The translations under genes were made by a program, and so were the position numbers. Positions 2 to 52,780 of a stretch of DNA of 64,000 nucleotides are shown here, one piece after another. The stretch is from Candidatus Tayloriibacteriota bacterium (GTDB lineage Bacteria; Patescibacteriota; Minisyncoccia; Phycocordibacterales; PALSA-1337): the NCBI GenBank assembly GCA_016215455.1, contig JACRJP010000004.1:21132-85131 (forward strand). The letters are read 5' to 3'. Below the pieces are notes generated by a model. The model saw only the letters and a list, made by a program, of their open reading frames with translations, was not told where the DNA came from and searched no databases. Positions within the stretch are counted from its first letter, which is position 1. The number at the start of each line of letters is the position of its first letter.

Positions 2-256
2 CTTGCAGTTGAACAACTTCAGGGTGCCGAGCCAAAATTTGTTCTCGTATTCAACTGTATCGCACGTAATAAGCTTTTTGGTGATCGTGGAGGAGATGAA
101 ATTAACGCTATTCAAGAATCAATTGGCAAACAAGTACCACTCATCGGTTTCTATACGTATGGTGAACAAGCTCCTTTGTATGGAGAAGTAAAAAATCTTG
201 AGAAATGTTCTCCAGGATTTCATAATGAAACAGTCGTAATCGCAGTAATTGCTTAA
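2..256 (+). CDS. FIST domain protein, C-terminal part only. It is cut off at the 5' end by the window edge.
   Basis: The frame-2 translation reads LAVEQLQGAEPKFVLVFNCIARNKLFGDRGGDEINAIQESIGKQVPLIGFYTYGEQAPLYGEVKNL... and ends at TAA 254-256. The GFYTYGEQAP ending is typical of the FIST_C domain. The ORF track missed it because there is no Met inside the window. Confidence 0.6.
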   Translation, partial: LAVEQLQGAEPKFVLVFNCIARNKLFGDRGGDEINAIQESIGKQVPLIGFYTYGEQAPLYGEVKNLEKCSPGFHNETVVIAVIA

Positions 257-1088
257 TCACATGAAAACTACCTACACCCAAGAAGAAGTACAGAAAATAT
301 TTGATCAACAGGAGGTAAGTTCAAAGATGTTAGTTCGTCGAGATCTCGAATTGACTCGTGCAAATGAAATGCTTCGTGAGCTCGACAAACGAAAGTCAGA
401 CTTTCTCTCTGTTATGGCTCACCAATTACGAACTCCTCTTGCCGGTATCAAATGGACATTTAACATTCTCTTGAGTGAAGATCTTGGAACTCTCAATGAA
501 GAACAGAAGAAATTTCTCATGAAAGGATATGAGAGTAATCAACGCATGATTAATCTCATTGAAGATATGCTTGGTGCTGAACGTATTGGTTCGGGACGAG
601 CTCATTTCGACTTTGAGACAACTGGTATTCATCAAGTTCTTGAGACCGTGATGTTTGAACTTACTCCTCAAGCTGCTAATCGTGATGTAAGTATCAAGGT
701 AGAAGGAATTAATGAAAAACTCACGCCAGTAGTGGCTGACAGTGAGAAACTTAAGGCAGTATTTCAGAATCTCATTGATAATGCTATCAAGTACACTCGT
801 GCTGGTGGTACGGTAACAGTACGTTGTACTGACAACGGAGAATTTTTTGTAATTGCTATCAAAGATACTGGTATCGGTATTCCTCAGGAACAACAAAAGT
901 ATATTTTCAACCGTTTCTATCGAGCGCCGAATGCTATTAAAGAACAAACAGATGGATCTGGTCTCGGTCTTTTCATTGTGAAGGGTATCGTCGAAAAACA
1001 TGGAGGTACGGTATGGTTTGATAGTGAAGAGGGTAAGGGAACAACCTTTTACTTTACTCTTAGGAAGGAGTACAATAAAAGCGAATAA
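249..1088 (+). CDS. Soluble sensor histidine kinase. It has a coiled coil, HisKA and HATPase_c, with no transmembrane or sensor domain.
   Basis: The H-box is DFLSVMAHQLRTPL. N, G1 and G2 boxes are present: NLIDNAIKYT, IKDTGIGIP, GSGLGLFIVK. It overlaps the FIST gene end by 8 nt. Confidence 0.85.
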   Translation: MLNHMKTTYTQEEVQKIFDQQEVSSKMLVRRDLELTRANEMLRELDKRKSDFLSVMAHQLRTPLAGIKWTFNILLSEDLGTLNEEQKKFLMKGYESNQRMINLIEDMLGAERIGSGRAHFDFETTGIHQVLETVMFELTPQAANRDVSIKVEGINEKLTPVVADSEKLKAVFQNLIDNAIKYTRAGGTVTVRCTDNGEFFVIAIKDTGIGIPQEQQKYIFNRFYRAPNAIKEQTDGSGLGLFIVKGIVEKHGGTVWFDSEEGKGTTFYFTLRKEYNKSE

Positions 1089-1094
1089 AACTAT

Positions 1095-1913
1095 ATGTCA
1101 CAGCGCGTTCTCGTAATTGAAGATGATGTTTTTCTAGGAGATCTTCTCCTTGAGAAACTTAACAAAGAAGGCTACGATACCCATCTTGTACGAGATGGTG
1201 CGTTAGGTATTCCTTCAATCACTCAATTAAAGCCAGATATTATCCTACTTGATATTATTCTCCCGAATGTTAATGGATATGAGATTCTCGAGGCAAAACG
1301 AAAAGATCCAAACATCGCAGCAATTCCTGTTATTGTTATTTCAAACTCAGGCCAACCGGTTGAAGTAAGTCGTGTACTTGCCCTTGGAGTGAAAGACTAC
1401 CTCATCAAGGCTCGTTTTGATGTGAATGATGTGATTTATAAGATGCGTGAGGTATTGGGACAAGGACAACCAGCAGCCCAACCTTCAATAACTTCTTCTA
1501 CGGAACAGAAAGCTGCCGGAGGGGTTCCACAAGACCAAGGACTTTCAGGTAAGCATCTCTTATGGGTAGAAGACGATAAATTTCTTGGAGATATCCTTTC
1601 TCGAAAGCTTACTGCGCAAGGTGCTATCGTCTATCGTGCAAAAAATGCTGACGAAGCGTATGCATCAATCGAAAAAGATATACCTGATATGATTCTTCTT
1701 GATGTCATTCTACCTGGAGCAGATGGTTTTGAAATTCTACAGAAAGTTAAGATTTCTCCTCGAACAAAACAAGTACCTGTTATTATGCTTTCAAATGTTA
1801 GTCAAAGTGGTGAAATAGAGAAGAGTAAACTCCTTGGAGCACATAAGTTTCTCGTGAAGGCTGCAGTCACTCTCGACCAGATCATTCGTGAAATAAAAAC
1901 AGTTCTTGCATAG
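1095..1913 (+). CDS. Response regulator with two tandem receiver (REC) domains and no output domain.
   Basis: Two REC units are visible: VLVIEDD...ILLDIILP...K and LWVEDD...ILLDVILP...K. The gap to the kinase is 7 nt. Confidence 0.85.
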   Translation: MSQRVLVIEDDVFLGDLLLEKLNKEGYDTHLVRDGALGIPSITQLKPDIILLDIILPNVNGYEILEAKRKDPNIAAIPVIVISNSGQPVEVSRVLALGVKDYLIKARFDVNDVIYKMREVLGQGQPAAQPSITSSTEQKAAGGVPQDQGLSGKHLLWVEDDKFLGDILSRKLTAQGAIVYRAKNADEAYASIEKDIPDMILLDVILPGADGFEILQKVKISPRTKQVPVIMLSNVSQSGEIEKSKLLGAHKFLVKAAVTLDQIIREIKTVLA

Positions 1914-1964
1914 TCCTCGGTTACTGGTATAGTGGTGAGAACGTCCTAACCATTCCACACTACA

Positions 1965-4562
1965 ATGGCTAATAAAAGCAACAAAACAGACGGCCCCCGG
2001 CGTAATGACGAGATGATTATCGTTAAAGGTGCACGTACCCACAACCTCAAAAATATTACGGTGGAAATGCCTCGTAATAAGATGATTGCTATTACCGGTC
2101 TCTCAGGATCAGGTAAGTCGTCACTCGCATTCGATACTATCTTTGCTGAAGGGCAGCGACGATACGTTGAGTCTCTTTCTTCATATGCTCGTCAATTCCT
2201 TCGTCAGATGCAAAAACCCGATGTTGATGAAATCATAGGTCTTTCACCAGCTATTTCTATTGATCAGAAATCTCGATCAAATAATCCTCGATCAACTGTC
2301 GCAACAATCACTGAAATTTACGATTACCTCCGTATCCTATTTGCTCGTGTTGGTAAGCCACACTGTCTTGAGTGTAATCGAGAGATTAAACGTATTACAA
2401 AAGAAGAAATTCTTGATGTCATCTTAAAACAAGTAGCGAGTCATGCTGCAGGAGGAAAAAAGGTACTCGGCGTTGAGCTATCTGATGCAAAAATTAAAAT
2501 ATATGCTCCTGTGGTACTTGGTCGTAAGGGTGAATACTATCAGCTTCTCTACGATCTTCTTGGAAAAGGATATACAAAAGTAAAGGTAGACGGCATAGCA
2601 CATCTACTCCGTGAACAAATTGTACTTGATAAGAATAAGAAACACAGTATTGATGTTTTGGTTGACGAACTCTTTCTGAGTGAATTTACCAACAAGAAAC
2701 AGTCAGCGAATGCTAAAGAACGTCTTTCAGAAGCACTCGAACGAGCTATTGAAGAAGCTAATGGCCTTATCCGTATCGAATTCCCGAATGATGAAAAGCT
2801 CATGTCGGTTAAATTCATGTGTCCTTACGATGGATTTTCATATCCTGAAATTGAACCTCGCTTATTCTCATTTAACTCACCATATGGCGCATGTCCTGAA
2901 TGTAATGGTCTCGGTACTCAAGTATTCTTTGGTGATGAACCGTGTGGGGTGTGTAAGGGAGCACGACTTCGTCCCGAAGCACTTCATGTAAAGATAGGTA
3001 ATCATAACATTGTTGATACTACGGCACTTTCAATTGATACAGCCAAGAAATTCTTTGAAGATGTAGAACTTACTGATACTGAAAAAGAAATTGCTAAGGT
3101 GATTCTCAAAGAGATTGAATCTCGACTTCAATTCATGCTAAATGTCGGTATCGAATACCTTACACTCGATCGTCGAGCTCATACACTTTCAGGTGGAGAA
3201 GCTCAACGTATTCGCCTTGCTTCACAGCTTGGATCAGGTCTTGTGGGAGCTCTCTATGTACTCGATGAACCAACAATTGGTCTTCATCAACGAGACAACG
3301 ATCGTTTGATTAAAACTCTCATATCACTTCGTGACCTTGGTAATACTATTATCGTCGTCGAACACGATGAAGATACGATGTTTGCCTCTGACTATATGAT
3401 CGATATCGGGCCAAAGGCTGGAGTTCATGGCGGTAATGTAGTCGTAGCGGGATACCTTGAAGATCTTCTTACCGCTAAGAAAAATGATTCTGGCTCATTA
3501 ACCCTTTCATATCTTCGTGGAGAAACAAAGATTCCTGTTCCTCATAAGCGTCGTGAACCGAAAGGTAAGATCATGGTTCGTGGTGGAAATGTTTTCAATA
3601 TTAAAAATATGGATGTTGATATACCACTCGGTTGTTTCAATGTCATTACCGGTGTTTCAGGATCGGGTAAATCATCATTGATGTATGAAATTCTTCACAA
3701 AAATCTTGAAGGACGACTTGAACGACGACATCGAACTGCACAGTTATATAACTGTAAGAGTTTTGAAGGTACTGAATACCTTAGTCGTACTATTCTCATC
3801 GACCAATCTCCGATTGGACGAACTCCACGATCAAATCCAGTGACATATACTGGGGCATGGACACATATCCGAGATCTTTTTGCTGCATCACCTGAAGCTC
3901 GAGCTCGTGGTTGGGGTCCTGGAAGATTTTCATTCAATGTGAAGGGTGGACGTTGTGAAGCATGTCAGGGTAATGGTGAAATTGCTGTTGAAATGCATTT
4001 CTTGCCGACAGTATATGTGCCCTGTGAAGTCTGTGCTGGTAAGCGCTTCATGAAAGAAACTCTTGATATCAAGTATAAAGGTAAGAGCGTGTATGACGTG
4101 CTCCATATGACAATTGAGGAAGCCCTCGTATTCTTTGAAGACATTCCAGCTGTGTCAGATCGACTTCAAACTCTTGGTGAAGTAGGTCTTGGATATCTTA
4201 AACTTGGACAATCAGCAACCACTCTCTCTGGTGGAGAGGCTCAACGTGTCAAAATTTCATCAGAACTCTATCGTGCGCATTTGCAAAAGACTATCTATCT
4301 TCTCGATGAACCTACCGTCGGTCTCCATTATGAGGATGTACGAAAACTCATTGAGATTCTCGAACGACTCGTCGAAAAGGGAAATACTGTTGTGGTGATT
4401 GAACACAATCTTGATCTCATTAAGTGTGCAGACTACGTGGTTGATGTTGGTCCAAACGGAGGAACTGGAGGAGGAAATATTGTTGCTAAAGGAACACCTG
4501 AAGATGTTGCACGAAATGCAAAATCATACACAGGACAGTATTTGAAGAAGTTGTTGAAATAA
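1965..4562 (+). CDS. uvrA: Excinuclease ABC subunit A (UvrA).
   Basis: Two ABC ATPase modules with [10 protein letters not shown] and [15 protein letters not shown] signatures, and zinc-finger Cys clusters. Length 865 aa. Confidence 0.97.
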
Positions 4563-5209: not shown

Positions 5210-6439
5210 GTGAAATTAGAAAACTTTGAACAATTACATATACCTGACAACCCTGGAGTATACCTATTCTATGGTTCAACATCAGATACTCAGCCACTAT
5301 ACATTGGTCGAGCAACCTCTCTTCGTGACCGTGTACGAAGCTATTTTGGTGATGATCTCATACATACTCGTGGTCCACTACTTGTTGATCTTGTAACTAA
5401 GGCTGAAACTATCAAATGGCAAGAAACCGACTCTGTTCTTGAGGCGATTATCCTTGAAGCTAATCTCATTAAGAAGTATCAACCATATTACAATACCAAA
5501 GAGAAGGATAATAAGAGTTTTAATTATGTTGTGATTACCAAAGAAGATTTTCCTCGAATACTTGTGGTGCGTGAGAGAAATTTGGAAAAAGATGCAACAG
5601 AAAAGAATTTTAAGGTACTTCATAAGTTTGGGCCGTATCCTCACACAGGAACTTTAGTTGAAGTCCTCAAGATTATTCGAAAGATGTTTCCATATCGAGA
5701 CAAATGTACACCAAATTCTGGTAAGCCATGTTTCAATCGTCAGATCGGTCTTTGTCCTGGGGTATGTAACGGGGACATTACCTCAAAAGAGTATAAAAAG
5801 AGCATTGCTCGTATAGTTCTATTTTTTGAAGGTAAGCGTTCAAAACTCATTGCAGATCTCGAAAAGGATATGACACAAGCTGCTCATGAAGAATGCTTTG
5901 AAAAAGCAACCTCACTTCGGGGTGTACTGTACAAGATCACTCATATTCATGACATGGCAATTCTTAAAGATGAACGCAATGAGACTTCAGATACTGGTTT
6001 TCGTATTGAAGCATACGATGTGGCACATCTCGGTGGTACAAATATTGCAGGGGTCATGGTGGTTGCGCATGACGGTATTCTCGAAAAAGGAGAGTATCGA
6101 AAATTTAAAATAACAACAGCAAAGAATGCTCACGAGACTCAATCACTTCGAGAGATTTTGACTCGTCGATTTTCTCATCCTGAATGGAGATTAGCTAATA
6201 TCATCGTTGTGGATGGTAATGATGTACAGAAGAATGCAGCAGAAGCGGTTCTTGCTGAGCTTAAACTGACCATTCCTGTACTCGCAGTAGTCAAAGATGC
6301 TCGTCATAAGCCACGAGATTTTATCGGTGATCCTGAACTTATTACACAGCATCGAGCAACTATCCTTAAACTTAATGCTGAGGCACACCGTTTCTCGATT
6401 TCATACCACCGTCTTTTGCGTTCACGAATTATTCGGTGA
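5210..6439 (+). CDS. uvrC: Excinuclease ABC subunit C, short form (UvrC). It has GIY-YIG, a Cys-rich/UVR region and the RNaseH-like endonuclease domain, but no C-terminal HhH.
   Basis: GVYLFYG...YIGRATSLRDRVRSY is a GIY-YIG motif. EAYDVAHLGG marks the endonuclease domain. The start codon is GTG. The protein is 409 aa, against about 600 for a canonical UvrC. Confidence 0.85.
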   Translation: MKLENFEQLHIPDNPGVYLFYGSTSDTQPLYIGRATSLRDRVRSYFGDDLIHTRGPLLVDLVTKAETIKWQETDSVLEAIILEANLIKKYQPYYNTKEKDNKSFNYVVITKEDFPRILVVRERNLEKDATEKNFKVLHKFGPYPHTGTLVEVLKIIRKMFPYRDKCTPNSGKPCFNRQIGLCPGVCNGDITSKEYKKSIARIVLFFEGKRSKLIADLEKDMTQAAHEECFEKATSLRGVLYKITHIHDMAILKDERNETSDTGFRIEAYDVAHLGGTNIAGVMVVAHDGILEKGEYRKFKITTAKNAHETQSLREILTRRFSHPEWRLANIIVVDGNDVQKNAAEAVLAELKLTIPVLAVVKDARHKPRDFIGDPELITQHRATILKLNAEAHRFSISYHRLLRSRIIR

Positions 6440-8314: not shown

Positions 8315-9403
8315 ATGAAAAAAATCATTTGGTCTGCAGTTGTTGTTATTATAATTGTGATAGGTTGGTTATTTACTAACAACAAACAGTCTAAATTAGT
8401 AACTAGTCACTCAATTAAGATTGGTGTCATAGCTCCACTTTCTGGCCCTCTAGCAGAATACGGAGAAGCATTTCAGAATGGTATCATCCTTGCGCAAGAG
8501 AAACTTAAGAATAACAAACTCCAATTTGTTTTTGAGGATAGTGCATATGACTCAGGTAAGGCAATTGCTGCTTTTAACAAGCTAAAAGATTTTGATAAGG
8601 TAAATGTGATTATCAACTGGGGTGATCCTACATCGCAAGCCATTGCACCTCTTGTGAAAACTAATTCGATTCCTTTTATCGCGGTGACAACTATTCCATC
8701 AGTTGCTGAACAAAGTCCGTATATCATCAGAACCCTAAATCGTTCAGAAGACGCGGCGGGAGCAACTTGGGAATATTTAAGGTCAAAAAACTTTAAAAAT
8801 GTTGGTATTGTAAAGCTTGAAACACCGTATTTTAATAGTCTTGTAGATTCGCTTATCAAGACAAAACAAACTGACGAAAAAGTTACTATTATTGATACCT
8901 ATCTTTCATTTGGTGATAAAGATTTCAGAACATCGATTAGTAAAATAAAAAATACATCGAAGTATGATGTTATTGGTGTATTCCTTGCGGGAGGTCAAAT
9001 CAGCCAGTTTTATAAACAGGCAAGTACTCTCGAAATGAAAACTCCTACATTTGGGACGGATTTTTTTGAAAGTCAGAGTGATATTGATGCCGCAGGAACA
9101 ACTATGAATGGAGTGGTGTATGTAAACTATGATGTTTCAGATGATTTTAGAACTGAATATCAAAATAGATTCAAAAATATAAGCCAAATTGCATACGCTG
9201 GTAATGGGTACGATACTGTAATGATGCTTAATAGTATTCCAGACGCAGATAAAGATTCAGTTATTAATACTCTTAAGGCTGTAAAAGATTACTCGGGAGT
9301 AGTTGGAAAATGGAATTTACTCGAAACAACCACTGATCGCTATCTTTCATCACCGTTCCATATAAAAATTATCCAGGACGGGATAATAAAAACTCTTAAT
9401 TAA
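8315..9403 (+). CDS. ABC transporter substrate-binding protein, type-1 periplasmic binding fold, resembling Leu/Ile/Val-binding proteins.
   Basis: An N-terminal TM or signal anchor is followed by IGVIAPLSGPLAEYGEAFQNG, characteristic of the Peripla_BP_6/LivJ family. Confidence 0.7.
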   Translation: MKKIIWSAVVVIIIVIGWLFTNNKQSKLVTSHSIKIGVIAPLSGPLAEYGEAFQNGIILAQEKLKNNKLQFVFEDSAYDSGKAIAAFNKLKDFDKVNVIINWGDPTSQAIAPLVKTNSIPFIAVTTIPSVAEQSPYIIRTLNRSEDAAGATWEYLRSKNFKNVGIVKLETPYFNSLVDSLIKTKQTDEKVTIIDTYLSFGDKDFRTSISKIKNTSKYDVIGVFLAGGQISQFYKQASTLEMKTPTFGTDFFESQSDIDAAGTTMNGVVYVNYDVSDDFRTEYQNRFKNISQIAYAGNGYDTVMMLNSIPDADKDSVINTLKAVKDYSGVVGKWNLLETTTDRYLSSPFHIKIIQDGIIKTLN

Positions 9404-20901: not shown

Positions 20902-23900
20902 ATGAATCCTTACGACCACTCATACGTCGAAAAGAAATGGCAAAAAGAATGGGCCAAGAAGAAAATTTACACCACTAAAGAAAAGGGAAAGAAGTTCTAT
21001 GTTCTCGACATGTTTCCATATCCTTCAGGAGAAGGTCTCCATGTTGGACACCCAAAGGGATACATTGCAACTGATGTCATTTCTCGTATGAAGCGTATGC
21101 AGGGTCATAATGTTCTTCATCCTATGGGCTTTGATGCTTTCGGTCTTCCTGCAGAGAACTACGCAATCAAGATGAAAACAAACCCGATGATCTCGGTTGC
21201 AGAAAACATTGAACGATACAAACAACAACTCGAAATTCTCGGTTTTGACTATGATTGGTCACGCGAGATCAATACAACTGATCCAAAATACTATAAATGG
21301 ACACAATGGATTTTCAAAAAACTTCACGAAAAGGGGTTGGCATATGAATCATATGAACCTATCAACTGGTGTCCTTTTGATAAGACAGGGTTGGCAAATG
21401 AGGATGTTGAAGATGGTCGTTGTGAACGTTGTGGCACACTTGTAGAGAAAAAACCTCTTCGTCAGTGGGTACTTCGTATTACAGACTACGCAGAGCGTCT
21501 TCTTGCTGATCTTGATGCAAAAGATGTAAATGGTACACCTCTCCTTGATTGGCCAGAATCAATCAAAGAGGCTCAAAGAAATTGGATAGGTAAGAGCGAA
21601 GGTGCAGAAATTGAATTCGCTATCGATATACACGGTGAACCTTCTACGGAAAAGATAAAGGTATTTACCACTCGACCCGACACACTGTTCGGTGTCACCT
21701 ATGTCGTACTCGCTCCTGAACATGCTTTTGTTCAAAAACTCATTGAACAATCTCCAAACAAACAATCACTTCTCGATTACATCACTGCGACTAAAAACAC
21801 TTCACAGATTGATCGTACGGATGCTAAAAAAGAAAAAACTGGTGTTGAAATTACAGGAGTATCTGCAATTAATCCTGCAAACGGTACAAAAGTTCCTGTT
21901 TGGATCGCTGACTATGTGCTTGCTGACTACGGTACAGGTGCGGTCATGGCCGTCCCAGCGCATGACGAACGTGATTGGGTCTTTGCGAAAAAATACAATC
22001 TTCCCATCATCGATGTTGTAACACCGATCGAAGGAGAACCTCATGCTGGTTCAGAATTCCGTAAAACAATCTCAGCGATTGTACACCGAAAGAGTGATAA
22101 TAAATTTCTTGCTCTCAAATGGAAGAAGTTCGGTTGGACATCAGTACCAGTTGGAGGTATAGAAGGGGATGAATCACCTGAAATAACAGCAGAACGTGAG
22201 GTTCTTGAAGAGACTGGATATGTCACAAAAGCTGTACGCACACTCGGTGGTACAGTAGAGTCACATTTCTTTGCTGAGAATAAGAATGTTTGGCGAGCAC
22301 GAGTTGATCAACCAGTTCTTCTTGAACTTGTTGATGAAAATAAAAAAGAAGTTGCTGTCGATGAACTTGAAAAGCATGAATGTGTTTGGCTCACCTCTGA
22401 AGAACTTCTCAAACAAATTACTCATCGTTACAATGCAATTGGTCTTGAACGCTTTATAGCCAAGAATGATGCATACACCGAAGCTGGCAAACTCATCAAT
22501 TCAGGAAAATTTGATGGTCTACGATCAGAAGAAGCAAAGAAAAAGATTACAACCGCAGTTGGAGGAAATTGGGTTACAAAATATAAACTTCGTGACTGGG
22601 TTTTCTCACGCCAACGATATTGGGGTGAACCGTTCCCGATTATTCACTGTGAGAAACATGGTGTTGTCCTTGTTCCTGAAAAAGAATTACCTGTCGAGCT
22701 TCCAAAAGTTGAATCATACGAACCAACAGGTACCGGTGAATCACCTCTTGCTGGTATTTCAGAATGGGTGAATACAAAGTGTCCTCAGTGTATTGCTGAT
22801 AAAAAGAAACCACACTATCTCATCTTTGATTTTGATGGAGTTCTTGGTGATACATGGACTGCAACACTTAAAGCAAAAGTATTGATGGGAGATAGCAAAA
22901 CAGAAGAAGAGGCTCAACAGGCAATCCTCGAATATTTTGATAAAAAACCATTTCACGCAAAAAACGTCCCTATTACACAAGAGAAATCGAACGCCGCGAC
23001 TAAATGGAGCAGAGACTTTGGAGAAAAAATGGCAACGATTGATTTTGATCTCTTCCATGAATTCATCAAAGAAATCAAAAAATATAAGAAAGTAAAAATT
23101 GCTGTAGTTTCATCAGGATCACGCCAATATGTGATCAAAGCAATGAAAAAATCAGGTCTCAAACCGACCCATATTCTCGCATTCGAAGATAGTCACTCAA
23201 AAGAAGAGAAGATCGAGCGTATTTGTAAGGACTGGAAAGTGGATGTAAAGGATATATATTACTTCACCGATACAAAAGCTGATGTCTACGAGCTTGAAGA
23301 TCTACTTGATCGAAACAAACTCATTGGTTGTGCTTGGGGTTATCAAGGTTTTACAAAACTCAATGAAGTTCTTCCTGATAAACAGATTCTCAAAGACTTC
23401 GCTGATATTCATCGCATTCTTAATATAGAATGTTCAGGGAAGCGCGAAACAAATACCATGCCACAATGGGCAGGTTCATCATGGTATCACCTCCGCTATA
23501 TGGATCCTACGAACAAAAAAGTACTCGTCGATCCTAAAAAAGAGAAATTCTGGAACTCTGTTGATCTCTACGTAGGTGGAGCTGAACATGCAACACGACA
23601 CCTTATCTACGCTCGTTTTTGGCACAAATTCTTATATGATATCGGGGTAGTATCGACAATTGAACCATTCTCAAAACTTCAATCCGTTGGTCTCATCATG
23701 GCAGAAGATGGTCGTAAGATGTCAAAACGTTTCGGTAATGTTGTAAATCCCGATGAAATTGTTCGTATCTACGGAGCCGATACATTGCGTCTCTATGAAA
23801 TGTTCATGGGTCCATTTGATCAAGCGATTAGTTGGAGTACCGATAGTATGGTTGGCTCACGAAGATTCATTGAGCGTGTATGGAAGATGGGCCACAAAGT

Positions 23901-24405
23901 ACTTACACAACCTCTATCACAAAAAGATGGTTCAACACTGACTCCAAGTGCTCGCACCGCACTTCATAAAGCAATTAAAAAGGTAGGAGAAGATATTGAA
24001 GACTTCCGTTTCAACACAGCAATCAGTACACTCATGATTACCTTGAATGAACTTGAAAAGGAAGCGATCGTGTCTCGTTCAGATTTTGAAGTATTTCTTA
24101 AATTAGCAGCTCCGTTCATACCACACGTTGCAGAAGAATTATGGAATGAATTAGGTAATAAGAAATCAATTCATCTCTCTGAATGGCCAACACACAATCC
24201 TGAATATCTTGTAGAAGCGGAAATAAAGATTGTCGTTCAAATAAATGGAAAGGTTCGAGCAACATTCACAACGGAAAAGGGAACAAGCGACGAAACCCTT
24301 CAAGAGACTGCTTTAAACCTCCCAGAGACCAAAAAATGGCTCAATGGTGGAACCCCTAAAAAAGTCATTATTATCAAAGAAAAGCTCGTAAATATCGTAA
24401 TATAG
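20902..24405 (+). CDS. leuS: Leucine--tRNA ligase with two inserted domains, one Nudix-like and one HAD-like.
   Basis: HVGH (HIGH) and KMSKR (KMSKS) are present. The editing domain shows TTRPDTLFG...VPAHDERD. At 1167 aa it is far longer than the roughly 820-880 aa of a typical bacterial LeuRS. The two inserts lie at aa ~375-525 and ~636-848. Confidence 0.97.
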   Translation: MNPYDHSYVEKKWQKEWAKKKIYTTKEKGKKFYVLDMFPYPSGEGLHVGHPKGYIATDVISRMKRMQGHNVLHPMGFDAFGLPAENYAIKMKTNPMISVAENIERYKQQLEILGFDYDWSREINTTDPKYYKWTQWIFKKLHEKGLAYESYEPINWCPFDKTGLANEDVEDGRCERCGTLVEKKPLRQWVLRITDYAERLLADLDAKDVNGTPLLDWPESIKEAQRNWIGKSEGAEIEFAIDIHGEPSTEKIKVFTTRPDTLFGVTYVVLAPEHAFVQKLIEQSPNKQSLLDYITATKNTSQIDRTDAKKEKTGVEITGVSAINPANGTKVPVWIADYVLADYGTGAVMAVPAHDERDWVFAKKYNLPIIDVVTPIEGEPHAGSEFRKTISAIVHRKSDNKFLALKWKKFGWTSVPVGGIEGDESPEITAEREVLEETGYVTKAVRTLGGTVESHFFAENKNVWRARVDQPVLLELVDENKKEVAVDELEKHECVWLTSEELLKQITHRYNAIGLERFIAKNDAYTEAGKLINSGKFDGLRSEEAKKKITTAVGGNWVTKYKLRDWVFSRQRYWGEPFPIIHCEKHGVVLVPEKELPVELPKVESYEPTGTGESPLAGISEWVNTKCPQCIADKKKPHYLIFDFDGVLGDTWTATLKAKVLMGDSKTEEEAQQAILEYFDKKPFHAKNVPITQEKSNAATKWSRDFGEKMATIDFDLFHEFIKEIKKYKKVKIAVVSSGSRQYVIKAMKKSGLKPTHILAFEDSHSKEEKIERICKDWKVDVKDIYYFTDTKADVYELEDLLDRNKLIGCAWGYQGFTKLNEVLPDKQILKDFADIHRILNIECSGKRETNTMPQWAGSSWYHLRYMDPTNKKVLVDPKKEKFWNSVDLYVGGAEHATRHLIYARFWHKFLYDIGVVSTIEPFSKLQSVGLIMAEDGRKMSKRFGNVVNPDEIVRIYGADTLRLYEMFMGPFDQAISWSTDSMVGSRRFIERVWKMGHKVLTQPLSQKDGSTLTPSARTALHKAIKKVGEDIEDFRFNTAISTLMITLNELEKEAIVSRSDFEVFLKLAAPFIPHVAEELWNELGNKKSIHLSEWPTHNPEYLVEAEIKIVVQINGKVRATFTTEKGTSDETLQETALNLPETKKWLNGGTPKKVIIIKEKLVNIVI

Positions 24406-43781: not shown

Positions 43782-43808
43782 TTGACTAACCTGTAAATTT
43801 GGTATAAT
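43782..43808 (+). promoter_or_regulatory. Strong sigma70-like promoter between grpE and dnaK.
   Basis: TTGACT, 15 bp spacer, TATAAT. An ATG sits 10 nt downstream at 43818, so the transcript would be essentially leaderless. Confidence 0.45.
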
Positions 43809-43817
43809 TACAACGTA

Positions 43818-44111
43818 ATGCTCACACTACGTCCACAACAGAAAATTGTTGAAAAAATCCTCATTGCACGCAATGGTGGGCGTGTTCGTGTTACCTTCGC
43901 TGTTATTGAAACAGCAGGAAATATTGAGTTCAAAGTACTCAAAGTAACCCCTATAGTCGCATCGATCAAGGGACCTACAATCCTCGCACTCCCTGGTAAA
44001 ATCAAAGATTCTGTAGCACCAGCAACTACAGCAACTTTCACAACATTCGTATCGCCATACGTATCTCTTTTCTTCTTTGATAGTCAACCTACACGCGCTC
44101 CATCTTTTTAA
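43818..44111 (+). CDS. Hypothetical small protein of 97 aa.
   Basis: The ORF follows directly after the promoter. The ORF itself is weakly supported. Confidence 0.3.
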   Translation: MLTLRPQQKIVEKILIARNGGRVRVTFAVIETAGNIEFKVLKVTPIVASIKGPTILALPGKIKDSVAPATTATFTTFVSPYVSLFFFDSQPTRAPSF

Positions 44112-50860: not shown

Positions 50861-52780
50861 ATGAACCGTTCTATTTTCTATTTTTTCGGAGGATCACTTC
50901 TTCTCATTATCCTCATCACTTCTTCATCAAAACTACTTGGTGTATATTCACCAAACCAAACAAAGGTATCTGCCTCATCAAAAGTACAAAATTTTCCATA
51001 TCTTAGAGAAAATTCATTACCACCGGTTCTCTCAGCTGAAAATGCTTTTTCATTACTTGTATATAAAAATGCAGCGAAAAATCCTGAAAAGGTTCTCTTT
51101 GAAAAAAATCCTGATCAACGTGTACCTATCGCTTCAGTAACTAAACTTGCAACAGCAAGTGCTGTAATCGAATCAATAGGACCTGAAACACTTATCACTA
51201 TCTCTCCTGATGCAGTAGCACAACCTGAAGGAGCAGGGCAGCTTATACAAGGAGAAGTATATCGACGCGATGAACTTCTACATCCACTTCTTATCGAATC
51301 AAGTAACGATGCTGCATATGCTTTTTCTGAAAAATTAGGTAGTACAAAATTCGTTACTGCAATGAACGCCTTCGCCCAAAGAGCAGGTATGGCATCGACG
51401 ACGTTTGCCAATCCAAGTGGTCTTGATCGGCCAGGACCCAATCTTTCAACAGCGCGTGACGTTGCTCATCTTGCTCAATATTTTTCTCAAAAACATCCTG
51501 ATCTTCTCAAGCTCACCGCCACAAAAACATATACATTCACCACAACAGCAGGAGTAACAAAAACTCTTCGTTCAACAAACGATCTTCTTAATGATACAAG
51601 CGTTCCTTTTACCATTCTCGGTGGCAAGACAGGGGAAACAAAAGCAGCAAAACAAGCACTTGTCATCGTTACGGATTCACCAATTCCTGATACGGTACTC
51701 ATTCATGTTGTCTTGCGTTCTGATAACAGAGAAAGTGACATGCGTACACTCATGAAATGGGTTCGAAATTCATATGTATGGAACAAAGAGGAAGCTTCTC
51801 TACCGACACCAAAGGTATCGGTTGATCCTTTAACAAAATTACAATGGGTAGCAGCAACAACATCAGCTCCTTGGACAGCACGCGACGCTCACTCGATTGC
51901 AATATTCAAAAATACCATGTATCTCATCGGAGGAGTTTTTGGTAATGGACTTGTTGAGAAAAACGGTATGGTGGAATACTGGAATGCTCCGCATGGAAGT
52001 GACATTTGGACAACACCAGATGGTTTCAATTGGAACAAGACAACAGATGTTGCTCCATGGTACAACCGACGTTCCGTGGGAACTATTGTTTTCCAAAATA
52101 AGTTATGGCTCATGGGAGGTTGGAGTCAGTATGATTATAAATATGACAATCGCATCTGGTGGACAGAAGATGGTGTCAAATGGAATCTTGCAACATCAAC
52201 GTCTCCTCGTTGGGAAGGACGTGAGGGTCATACTCTCAATGAATACAACGGCAAACTCTATCTCATGGGTGGTGTTGATTTCGTAAAGAGAATTACCTAC
52301 AACGATGTATGGGAATCGAGTGATGGTATTACCTGGAAACAAGTAACTGCTAATTCCGAATGGACACCTCGTTATGATCACGCTGTTGCTGTTTTTAATA
52401 ACAAACTGTATCTCACGGGAGGACTTCACATTAATACCCACGAAACAGAAAGTGAGGTATGGACTTCAACTGATGGTGCTCATTGGATAAAAAGTACTCC
52501 GGAATGGCCTTCACGCCACGGACATATTTCTCTTGCATTCAAAGATGCTCTCTGGGTCATTGGTGGTTGGCATGAAGGGAAGGGAGCTGAAAACAAAGGA
52601 ATCAATGATACCTGGTTTACTCGCGATGGTCTTCATTGGACAAAGACACAGACTGATGGTCCATGGCTCGGTCGAGAAGATCACATGGGGGATGTATTCC
52701 AAGGTACAATGTGGGTAACAGGTGGAATGGATACTAACGAACATTGGAATAATGACGTTTATTACGCCAAATTTGAATAA
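50861..52780 (+). CDS. D-alanyl-D-alanine carboxypeptidase (PBP5/S11 type) fused to a C-terminal Kelch-repeat beta-propeller.
   Basis: An N-terminal membrane anchor. SxxK is ASVTKL, SxN is ESSNDAA, KTG is GGKTGET. Six Kelch-like repeats follow, for example WTARDAHSIAIFKNTMYLIGG and WTPRYDHAVAVFNNKLYLTGG. Confidence 0.8.
   Translation: MNRSIFYFFGGSLLLIILITSSSKLLGVYSPNQTKVSASSKVQNFPYLRENSLPPVLSAENAFSLLVYKNAAKNPEKVLFEKNPDQRVPIASVTKLATASAVIESIGPETLITISPDAVAQPEGAGQLIQGEVYRRDELLHPLLIESSNDAAYAFSEKLGSTKFVTAMNAFAQRAGMASTTFANPSGLDRPGPNLSTARDVAHLAQYFSQKHPDLLKLTATKTYTFTTTAGVTKTLRSTNDLLNDTSVPFTILGGKTGETKAAKQALVIVTDSPIPDTVLIHVVLRSDNRESDMRTLMKWVRNSYVWNKEEASLPTPKVSVDPLTKLQWVAATTSAPWTARDAHSIAIFKNTMYLIGGVFGNGLVEKNGMVEYWNAPHGSDIWTTPDGFNWNKTTDVAPWYNRRSVGTIVFQNKLWLMGGWSQYDYKYDNRIWWTEDGVKWNLATSTSPRWEGREGHTLNEYNGKLYLMGGVDFVKRITYNDVWESSDGITWKQVTANSEWTPRYDHAVAVFNNKLYLTGGLHINTHETESEVWTSTDGAHWIKSTPEWPSRHGHISLAFKDALWVIGGWHEGKGAENKGINDTWFTRDGLHWTKTQTDGPWLGREDHMGDVFQGTMWVTGGMDTNEHWNNDVYYAKFE

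Follow-up and report, generated by a model that had tools for sequence, protein, structure and literature searches.

A conserved operon of a FIST protein, a sensor-less histidine kinase and a tandem-receiver regulator in Patescibacteria is a probable NosP-type signalling unit

How does a histidine kinase that carries no sensing domain of its own receive its signal? The question is raised by positions 2 to 1,913 of a 64,000-nucleotide stretch of a Candidatus Tayloriibacteriota genome (GenBank assembly GCA_016215455.1, contig JACRJP010000004.1, positions 21,132 to 85,131; the whole stretch is hereafter called the window), where the 3' end of a FIST-domain gene is followed on the same strand by such a kinase and by a response regulator made of two receiver (REC) domains. 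A preliminary description of the locus had proposed that the three genes form one signalling module in which the FIST protein acts as a separate sensor for the kinase. This proposal is supported by the conservation of the gene order and by the precedent of NosP, a stand-alone FIST protein whose gene is accompanied by those of a regulator and of a kinase consisting of DHp and catalytic domains alone (PMC12570481, PMC8846402). We put the probability that the trio is a cytoplasmic, three-protein NosP-type signalling operon in a Patescibacteria (Parcubacteria/Paceibacteria) genome at roughly 0.62. Its genes and their parts are given below, with coordinates in the window or, where marked L001, in the overlapping Logan contig SRR12113407_478456 (24.4 kb).

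Window 2–256, forward strand: C-terminus of the FIST protein (last 84 codons and the stop), with the Pfam FIST_C match at window 26–175.
L001 7972–9162: full FIST gene, 396 amino acids, the N-terminal 312 codons of which lie upstream of the window.
Window 261–1088, forward strand: soluble class-I histidine kinase of 275 amino acids, with an N-terminal helix, HisKA at 393–596 and HATPase_c at 738–1067.
Window 330–365, forward strand: conserved motif L24-x-R26-R27-D28-x-E30-L31-x-x-A34-N35 in the kinase helix that precedes the H-box.
Window 420–434, forward strand: kinase H-box core H54-Q55-L56-R57-T58, with the phospho-acceptor His54, an atypical Gln as the next residue (His+1) and Thr at the phosphatase position (His+4).
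Window 1095–1913, forward strand: REC-REC response regulator of 272 amino acids, with REC1 at about 1104–1448 and REC2 at about 1554–1898.
Window 1251–1253, forward strand: REC1 phospho-acceptor Asp53, accompanied by D10, D11, S83 and K105.
Window 1701–1703, forward strand: REC2 phospho-acceptor Asp203, accompanied by D160, D161, S233 and K255.

The three open reading frames (ORFs) exist where the preliminary description had placed them and encode the domains it had named; the junctions between them needed revision. The first ORF lies in frame 2 and ends with the TAA at 254–256, and its 84 residues (window 2–253) match the Pfam FIST_C model with an E-value of 2.5e-13 and 50.7 bits (the cut-offs are 28.5 bits for FIST_C and 23.2 bits for FIST_N). 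The upstream part was recovered by an exact-protein look-up with the regulator, which led to L001, a contig that shares 7,496 nucleotides (nt) with the window with 0 mismatches. The complete protein carries FIST_N (residues 36–226, E 3.7e-48, 164 bits) followed by FIST_C (residues 228–370, E 1.9e-35, 122 bits), and is thus a genuine two-domain FIST protein rather than an unrelated one. In the kinase, Pfam detects HisKA (residues 45–112, E 6.6e-16) and HATPase_c (residues 160–269, E 1.4e-32) and no further domain, and hydropathy analysis reveals no membrane-compatible hydrophobic segment in any of the three proteins (the KD19 maximum of the kinase is 0.90), in agreement with the absence of a sensing domain noted earlier. 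Its sequence boxes comprise H54, N174, G1 (DTGIGI, 202–207), F (FNRFYR, 216–221) and G2 (GSGLGL, 232–237). The FIST and kinase genes had been described as overlapping by 8 nt, which takes TTG 249 as the kinase start; the gene caller chose ATG 261, and because an 83% identical relative (locus L046) conserves this ATG but has the TTG in a different frame from the ORF that the ATG opens, we adopt a gap of 4 nt. The kinase ends at 1088 and the ATG of the regulator lies at 1095, leaving 6 nt between them instead of the 7 nt first given.

To what extent is this arrangement retained elsewhere? A scan with FIST peptides, covering one genome per GTDB species, returned 42 loci, whose ORFs were called and clustered. 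All 42 lie in metagenome-assembled genomes of Patescibacteria, most of them with Parcubacteria-type labels (Nomura-, Kaiser-, Zambryski-, Taylor- and Niyogibacteria, Paceibacterota) and many with nothing more specific than 'Saccharibacteria' or 'bacterium'. Only three families recur widely, with FIST at all 42 loci, the kinase at 39 and the REC protein at 38; uvrB (12) and uvrA (10) come next, and every other family occurs at 6 loci or fewer. The order is always FIST, kinase, regulator on the same strand, so that the co-occurrence expected from the preliminary description is found in 38 of the 42 species-level genomes, and most of the missing members coincide with contig ends (L004, L016, L021). 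The two closest relatives in the protein database (83% and 70% identity) share this order. Such an arrangement is far beyond chance, and its wide and strong conservation in Patescibacteria is distinctive for this clade. The protein database additionally holds at least 120 clusters of FIST orthologues, with identities of 64–83% and lengths all of about 397–400 amino acids. Among orthologues from 34 genomes, the median identity to the window proteins is highest for FIST (65%), ahead of the kinase (51%) and the regulator (49%). Slower evolution of the sensor than of its transmitter suggests, as far as sequences can tell, that the ligand is conserved or that an interaction surface is under strong constraint. 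The recurring order, with FIST as its most conserved part, argues for one module and against a single gene broken by a frameshift, an idea ruled out by the separate FIST and kinase ORFs at all 39 loci that carry both.

The departures from the standard layout are informative about the place of FIST within the module. At two loci (L026 and L028), and probably also at L037, a Peripla_BP_6 solute-binding protein gene stands between FIST and a dCache(-HAMP) membrane kinase of 625–642 amino acids, while at L040 the solute-binding protein is of the ABC_sub_bind family and the kinase again of the dCache type.

L026 7607–8824, L028 8194–9486, L037 2005–3201 and L040 8220–9236: genes for membrane-anchored solute-binding proteins, between FIST and the dCache(-HAMP) kinase.

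Three further loci (L020, L032, L039) combine a small membrane protein with a 426-residue kinase, three (L010, L018, L031) have a single-REC regulator, and L028 carries two FIST genes in tandem. Since FIST is kept as the first gene even beside dCache-HAMP sensor kinases and solute-binding proteins (L026, L028, L040), it appears to be an input in its own right rather than a domain that the kinase has lost; that its position is the same with and without an extracytoplasmic sensor in the kinase fits cytoplasmic input through a separate protein. The window itself contains a Peripla_BP_6 gene (8315–9403), which was considered as an orthologue of the solute-binding proteins of these variant operons and set aside, the identity being only 23%.

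Gene order of this kind could also be mere inheritance, with FIST, for example an enzyme or a protein adaptor, having nothing to do with the kinase. The neighbours of the FIST fold do include barbiturase and chorismatase, the FIST domain of FBXO22 is a protein-recognition domain, and the fact that FIST is better conserved than the signalling proteins agrees with an independent function, as does a FIST gene on a Legionella plasmid that has no signalling neighbour. Yet the trio is the sole conserved unit amid varying flanks, its genes are a few nt apart, and distant members of the subfamily on cyanobacterial and alphaproteobacterial plasmids (29–33% identity) are likewise found directly upstream of signalling enzymes, with a kinase, a PAS kinase or an adenylate cyclase 4–8 nt downstream. 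NosP moreover provides a direct experimental precedent, as the Burkholderia pseudomallei protein binds NosK and inhibits its autophosphorylation in a nitric oxide (NO)-dependent manner (PMC12570481). Taken together, these points make an accidental adjacency very improbable.

We then asked how close the FIST protein of the operon is to NosP itself. Its sole named match is the NCBIfam NosP model (NF041558; 90.8 bits, E 9.1e-26), with an alignment that spans the full length (residues 19–369 against positions 8–353 of 368). The family is large, with 7,967 cluster representatives at an E-value of 1e-3 or below and 1,048 at 1e-30 or below, and the modest NosP scores of the protein and its relatives point to an extensive FIST subfamily distinct from NosP. 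An AlphaFold model built on a 126-sequence alignment has a mean predicted local distance difference test score (pLDDT) of 95.2 and a predicted template modelling score (pTM) of 0.93, and its predicted fold consists of three YjgF-like repeats, as in the only solved FIST structure. That structure, the FIST domain of FBXO22, shows the repeats in pseudo three-fold symmetry, with chorismatases and cyanuric acid hydrolases as the nearest neighbours (PMC11185555); it was found by fold comparison only, a search of the PDB with the FIST sequence giving nothing meaningful. Across the 126 sequences, the near-invariant polar residues are D164, H201, T213, Y232, R270, R334, E345 and E367. Separately, six proteins of 1,200–2,400 residues (P0121, P0125, P0127, P0131, P0155 and P0188), about 30–33% identical to the FIST protein of the window, contain two to four FIST_N + FIST_C units; they were considered as possible Rosetta-stone fusions to a kinase and discarded, because they hold repeated FIST units only and no kinase domain.

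Might the protein nevertheless be a true NosP, that is, a heme-binding sensor of NO (or of heme), and the operon NO-responsive as in Pseudomonas, Legionella, Vibrio and Burkholderia? The full-length match to this one named model (E 9e-26) and the shared operon logic speak for it (here too a stand-alone FIST gene adjoins a co-oriented, sensor-less kinase at 4 nt, an adjacency conserved in 39 loci), and the near-invariant His201 could in principle ligate heme, which is speculation. However, the score of 90.8 bits has to be set against an equivalog cut-off of 450 bits, and the surrounding subfamily scores in the same low range; the regulator has no domain that metabolises cyclic di-GMP (c-di-GMP), and the kinase has no receiver and is not a hybrid. 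To our knowledge, Patescibacteria usually lack heme synthesis and respiratory chains, which also counts against a heme protein. We accordingly hold this identity to be decidedly improbable, and retain a NosP-type operon in the wider sense as the preferred reading.

If FIST acts on the kinase, the residues preceding the H-box are the obvious place to look. Most of the kinases compared resemble that of the window in size (29/40 are of 353 amino acids or fewer), and the residues of the pre-H-box helix are nearly invariant among the 40 (L24 in 39, R26 in 39, R27 in 40, D28 in 39 and L31 in 39) whatever precedes them, be the kinase bare, of the 426-residue type or of the dCache-HAMP type. A single-sequence AlphaFold model of the kinase is poor (overall pLDDT 36, rising to about 70 over residues 1–40); it predicts residues 7–57, the region in which the preliminary description had placed a coiled coil, as one helix running into His54. 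We infer that the motif at residues 24–35 is a candidate site at which input from FIST or HAMP acts. The two kinases and the adenylate cyclase that follow FIST genes outside Patescibacteria (L044 5075–6148, L049 4567–5634, L050 4567–5403) also begin with a long charged helix, which contains the motif L-[KR]-[KR]-[KR]-L-E-R; loosely like the RRDLEL helix of the window kinase, it may be a common FIST-docking element.

The H-box itself is unusual. In HisKA kinases, the residue after the histidine is Glu or Asp, the general base for autophosphorylation (PMC7005713), and the five nearest solved kinases are all His-Glu; the window kinase has Gln55 at this place, as do 39/39 FIST-linked kinases, while His54 and Thr58 are each present in 40/40. 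When the acid is replaced by Gln in CrdS (E372Q) and, judged by phenotype, in NtrB (E140Q), kinase activity is lost and phosphatase activity kept, the latter requiring the Thr or Asn at His+4 (PMC3510030) that Thr58 supplies here; phosphatase activity is also stimulated by the nucleotide-bound ATP-binding domain (PMC7005713). With His-Gln in place of His-Glu/Asp in its H-box, the enzyme may thus have an intrinsically low kinase and a high phosphatase activity. In the extreme case it would be naturally kinase-off and phosphatase-on, and FIST would either control a phosphatase acting on a regulator phosphorylated elsewhere (by acetyl phosphate or another kinase) or be needed to activate a crippled autokinase. 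The strict Gln, alongside invariant His54, Thr58 and ATP-lid motifs, agrees with this scenario, as do the mutant phenotypes, the general-base role of the acid and the His-Glu of the solved kinases. The mutants, however, derive from kinases that evolved with the acid, for whose absence a Gln-evolved lineage may compensate, and the fact that His54 and the entire ATP-binding domain are strictly conserved fits a working kinase as well. The substitution may also have no connection with FIST: a second Patescibacteria HisKA kinase (L021 1066–2670), which has no adjoining FIST gene, carries Lys at His+1 (THKLRTPL), so that the acid may have been lost across the lineage. On balance, we consider either version rather unlikely, and favour an operon in which FIST modulates an enzyme with both activities.

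The output of the operon is equally distinctive. As first described, the regulator consists of two complete receivers and no effector (Pfam finds two Response_reg stretches, E 2.2e-35, and nothing else), with both catalytic sets intact, and an output domain is absent from every orthologue too. The two receivers are 36% identical to each other, and the linker of about 30 residues between them is not conserved; in contrast to the linker, the phospho-acceptor and accompanying residues listed above for REC1 and REC2 are each conserved in at least 95% of the 32 tandem orthologues (240–300 amino acids) that make up the conservation profile. With neither an enzymatic nor a DNA-binding output, the regulator must act through protein-protein contacts or as a phosphate buffer. 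The former, which the preliminary description had suggested, has precedents in FrzZ, a stand-alone tandem-receiver protein in polarity control in Myxococcus xanthus (PMC4546325), and in DrdR of Xanthomonas campestris, a tandem-receiver protein with a degenerate first receiver that stimulates the PilB and PilT ATPases (PMC13507683); the phosphate sink that it offered as the other option is possible.

Several observations weigh against a NosP-type operon. Downstream of FIST at L038 and L040, a REC gene is not seen. The FIST protein falls short of the NosP equivalog cut-off, and the 10 nearest relatives from outside the candidate phyla radiation that we compared with the model reach only 62–106 bits; with scores below threshold, the biochemistry of NosP is not simply transferable. 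The FBXO22 domain has no obvious ligand pocket (PMC11185555), so the FIST fold alone is no proof of small-molecule binding. By analogy with the mutants, a kinase with this conserved Gln would be expected to autophosphorylate poorly, which puts the phosphate source of the regulator in question, and the window yields no candidate for the target of the regulator. Finally, whereas gene content, domain architecture, catalytic residues, the FIST fold and conservation of the trio across the 42 genomes are shown by the sequences and models, binding between FIST and the kinase is inferred, as are the direction of regulation, the ligand and the regulator target.

Bearing these points in mind, the operon would work as follows. 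By analogy with NosP, FIST would be the input, binding an intracellular ligand and contacting the kinase, probably at its invariant N-terminal helix (L-x-RRD-x-EL-x-x-AN), which continues to the phospho-histidine. The contact would shift the balance between kinase and phosphatase activities, the kinase would in turn set the phosphorylation state of the two-receiver regulator, and the latter would act through protein-protein contacts like those of FrzZ and DrdR, or by buffering phosphate.

What might the ligand be? FIST was originally suggested to sense amino acids or related metabolites, the preliminary description also mentioned amino acids as possible ligands, and the operon could on that basis report the nutrient supply from a host. 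A gene for a 452-residue DAO-family FAD oxidoreductase ends 14 nt before FIST in this genome and in its 83% identical relative.

L001 6599–7957 and L046 1–258: DAO-family oxidoreductase gene, whose N-terminus weakly matches pipecolate and aminophosphonate oxidase models.

Together with the LivJ-type (Peripla_BP_6) and ABC_sub_bind proteins inserted before the dCache kinases of the variant operons, and with a fold related to small-molecule enzymes of YjgF-like repeats, this gene speaks for the proposal. But the DAO gene occurs just at these two loci and is absent from all 42 others, so that it was rejected as a general fourth component, and the solute-binding proteins are extracytoplasmic and likelier to serve the dCache kinase than a cytoplasmic FIST. 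A sensor of an amino acid or related metabolite therefore strikes us as quite unlikely.

The surroundings of the operon add further observations. On L001, a divergent PEGA gene and uvrB lie beyond the DAO gene, and uvrA begins 51 nt downstream of the regulator. At 13/41 species-level loci and in both closest relatives, the trio is flanked by uvrB and uvrA or immediately precedes the uvrB-uvrA pair, and uvrC is often just past the cluster; this neighbourhood could reflect common inheritance of the gene order or a functional tie to DNA-damage physiology.

Loci L003, L005, L006, L008, L013, L017, L028, L030, L035, L036, L039, L046 and L047: uvr-linked.
Window 1965–4562: uvrA.
Window 5210–6439: uvrC.
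L001 3583–5700: uvrB.

A scan of the intergenic gaps (14, 4 and 6 nt between DAO, FIST, kinase and regulator) found no terminator-like sites between the operon genes, and promoter and terminator scans gave counts at or below shuffle expectation. Extended -10-like elements are present as TGGTATAGT 32 nt ahead of the uvrA start and as TGGTATAAT 7 nt ahead of the DAO start, the latter so close to the ATG that it suggests a leaderless transcript. The pattern TGGTATA(A/G)T occurs at window 1925–1933 (uvrA), at window 43800–43808 (ahead of an ORF at 43818) and at L001 6583–6591 (DAO); the number of copies is not significant (17/100 shuffles reach it), and as the pattern is not enriched we take these elements only as a hint. 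A role in anti-phage defence was also considered and dropped: PADLOC gives no match for FIST, and only generic HATPase and REC domain matches for the kinase and the regulator.

Elsewhere in the 64-kb window there are no other kinases or regulators, and the parts annotated via identical contigs hold housekeeping genes and no pilus genes. Two other proteins in the window deserve mention.

Window 20902–24405: class-I aminoacyl-tRNA synthetase of 1,167 amino acids (leucyl-type domains), with NUDIX and HAD_2 Pfam matches between the synthetase segments, an unusual insertion.
Window 50861–52780: protein of 639 amino acids that combines Peptidase_S11 (D-Ala-D-Ala carboxypeptidase) with Kelch-type beta-propeller repeats, encoded immediately upstream of ftsW and murG.

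How Patescibacteria transduce signals has hardly been explored, and retention of the operon in dozens of reduced genomes, with the sensor conserved above the kinase, makes it a good candidate for a switch by which the cell centrally senses its environment or host. A bolder scheme, which we offer tentatively and think unlikely, is that the very small genomes of the Parcubacteria group retain a single, strongly conserved cytoplasmic signalling unit with a kinase naturally devoid of the catalytic acid, for which FIST would be the obligatory activator or the switch of a phosphatase-biased enzyme acting on a double receiver, the ligand being a non-heme compound, perhaps a host-derived metabolite; the position beside uvrB-uvrA could then mean a link to DNA damage or stress. 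The clade offers small soluble proteins (396, 275 and 272 amino acids) with which to look for FIST ligands outside the NosP clade, and is suited to asking how FIST communicates with a kinase and whether a HisKA kinase with a natural His-Gln H-box is still capable of autophosphorylation. Should the answers prove conventional, the operon would simply be a new branch of NosP-type systems.

The design of a FIST sensor paired with a bare kinase is itself already known, and the trio described here is a new, uncharacterised Patescibacteria clade of the NosP-type design; our search of the literature found no link between FIST domains and Patescibacteria. Its closest counterparts are the NosP-NosK/NahK-NosR/NarR systems of B. 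pseudomallei (BPSS1647-1646-1648), Pseudomonas aeruginosa (PA1975-PA1976) and Legionella pneumophila (NosP-NahK-NarR), together with the VpsV-VpsS pair of Vibrio cholerae (PMC8846402, PMC4398556, PMC8738867). As in the window, these systems place a FIST_N + FIST_C protein beside a cytoplasmic kinase of DHp and catalytic domains, with the regulator in the operon, and their FIST proteins bind the kinase and change its autophosphorylation (PMC12570481, PMC8846402, PMC4398556). The window trio differs in having a remote FIST relative, a REC-REC output and a non-hybrid His-Gln kinase, and in residing, unlike the NosP systems, in a reduced-genome Patescibacterium. The H-NOX-HnoK systems follow the same logic, with a separate soluble sensor that controls the autokinase activity of an adjacent sensor-less kinase (PMC8846402), but their sensor fold is unrelated (an HNOB heme domain, not FIST). 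With respect to the kinase, the engineered CrdS E372Q and NtrB E140Q variants share Gln at His+1 and the Thr or Asn kept at His+4 (PMC3510030); these are laboratory mutants, whereas the Gln here is natural and conserved in 39 orthologues. The regulator resembles FrzZ and DrdR in domain layout (two REC domains and no output domain), although the N-terminal REC of DrdR is a degenerate pseudo-receiver while both receivers are intact here, and FrzZ is fed by a CheA-type kinase. The FIST domain of FBXO22 (PDB 8ua3), 19% identical to the FIST protein of the window, is eukaryotic, fused to an F-box and recognises a protein degron. What sets the Patescibacteria operons apart from all of these is their REC-only, mostly double-receiver output, the natural His-Gln H-box and the recurrent position beside uvrB-uvrA.

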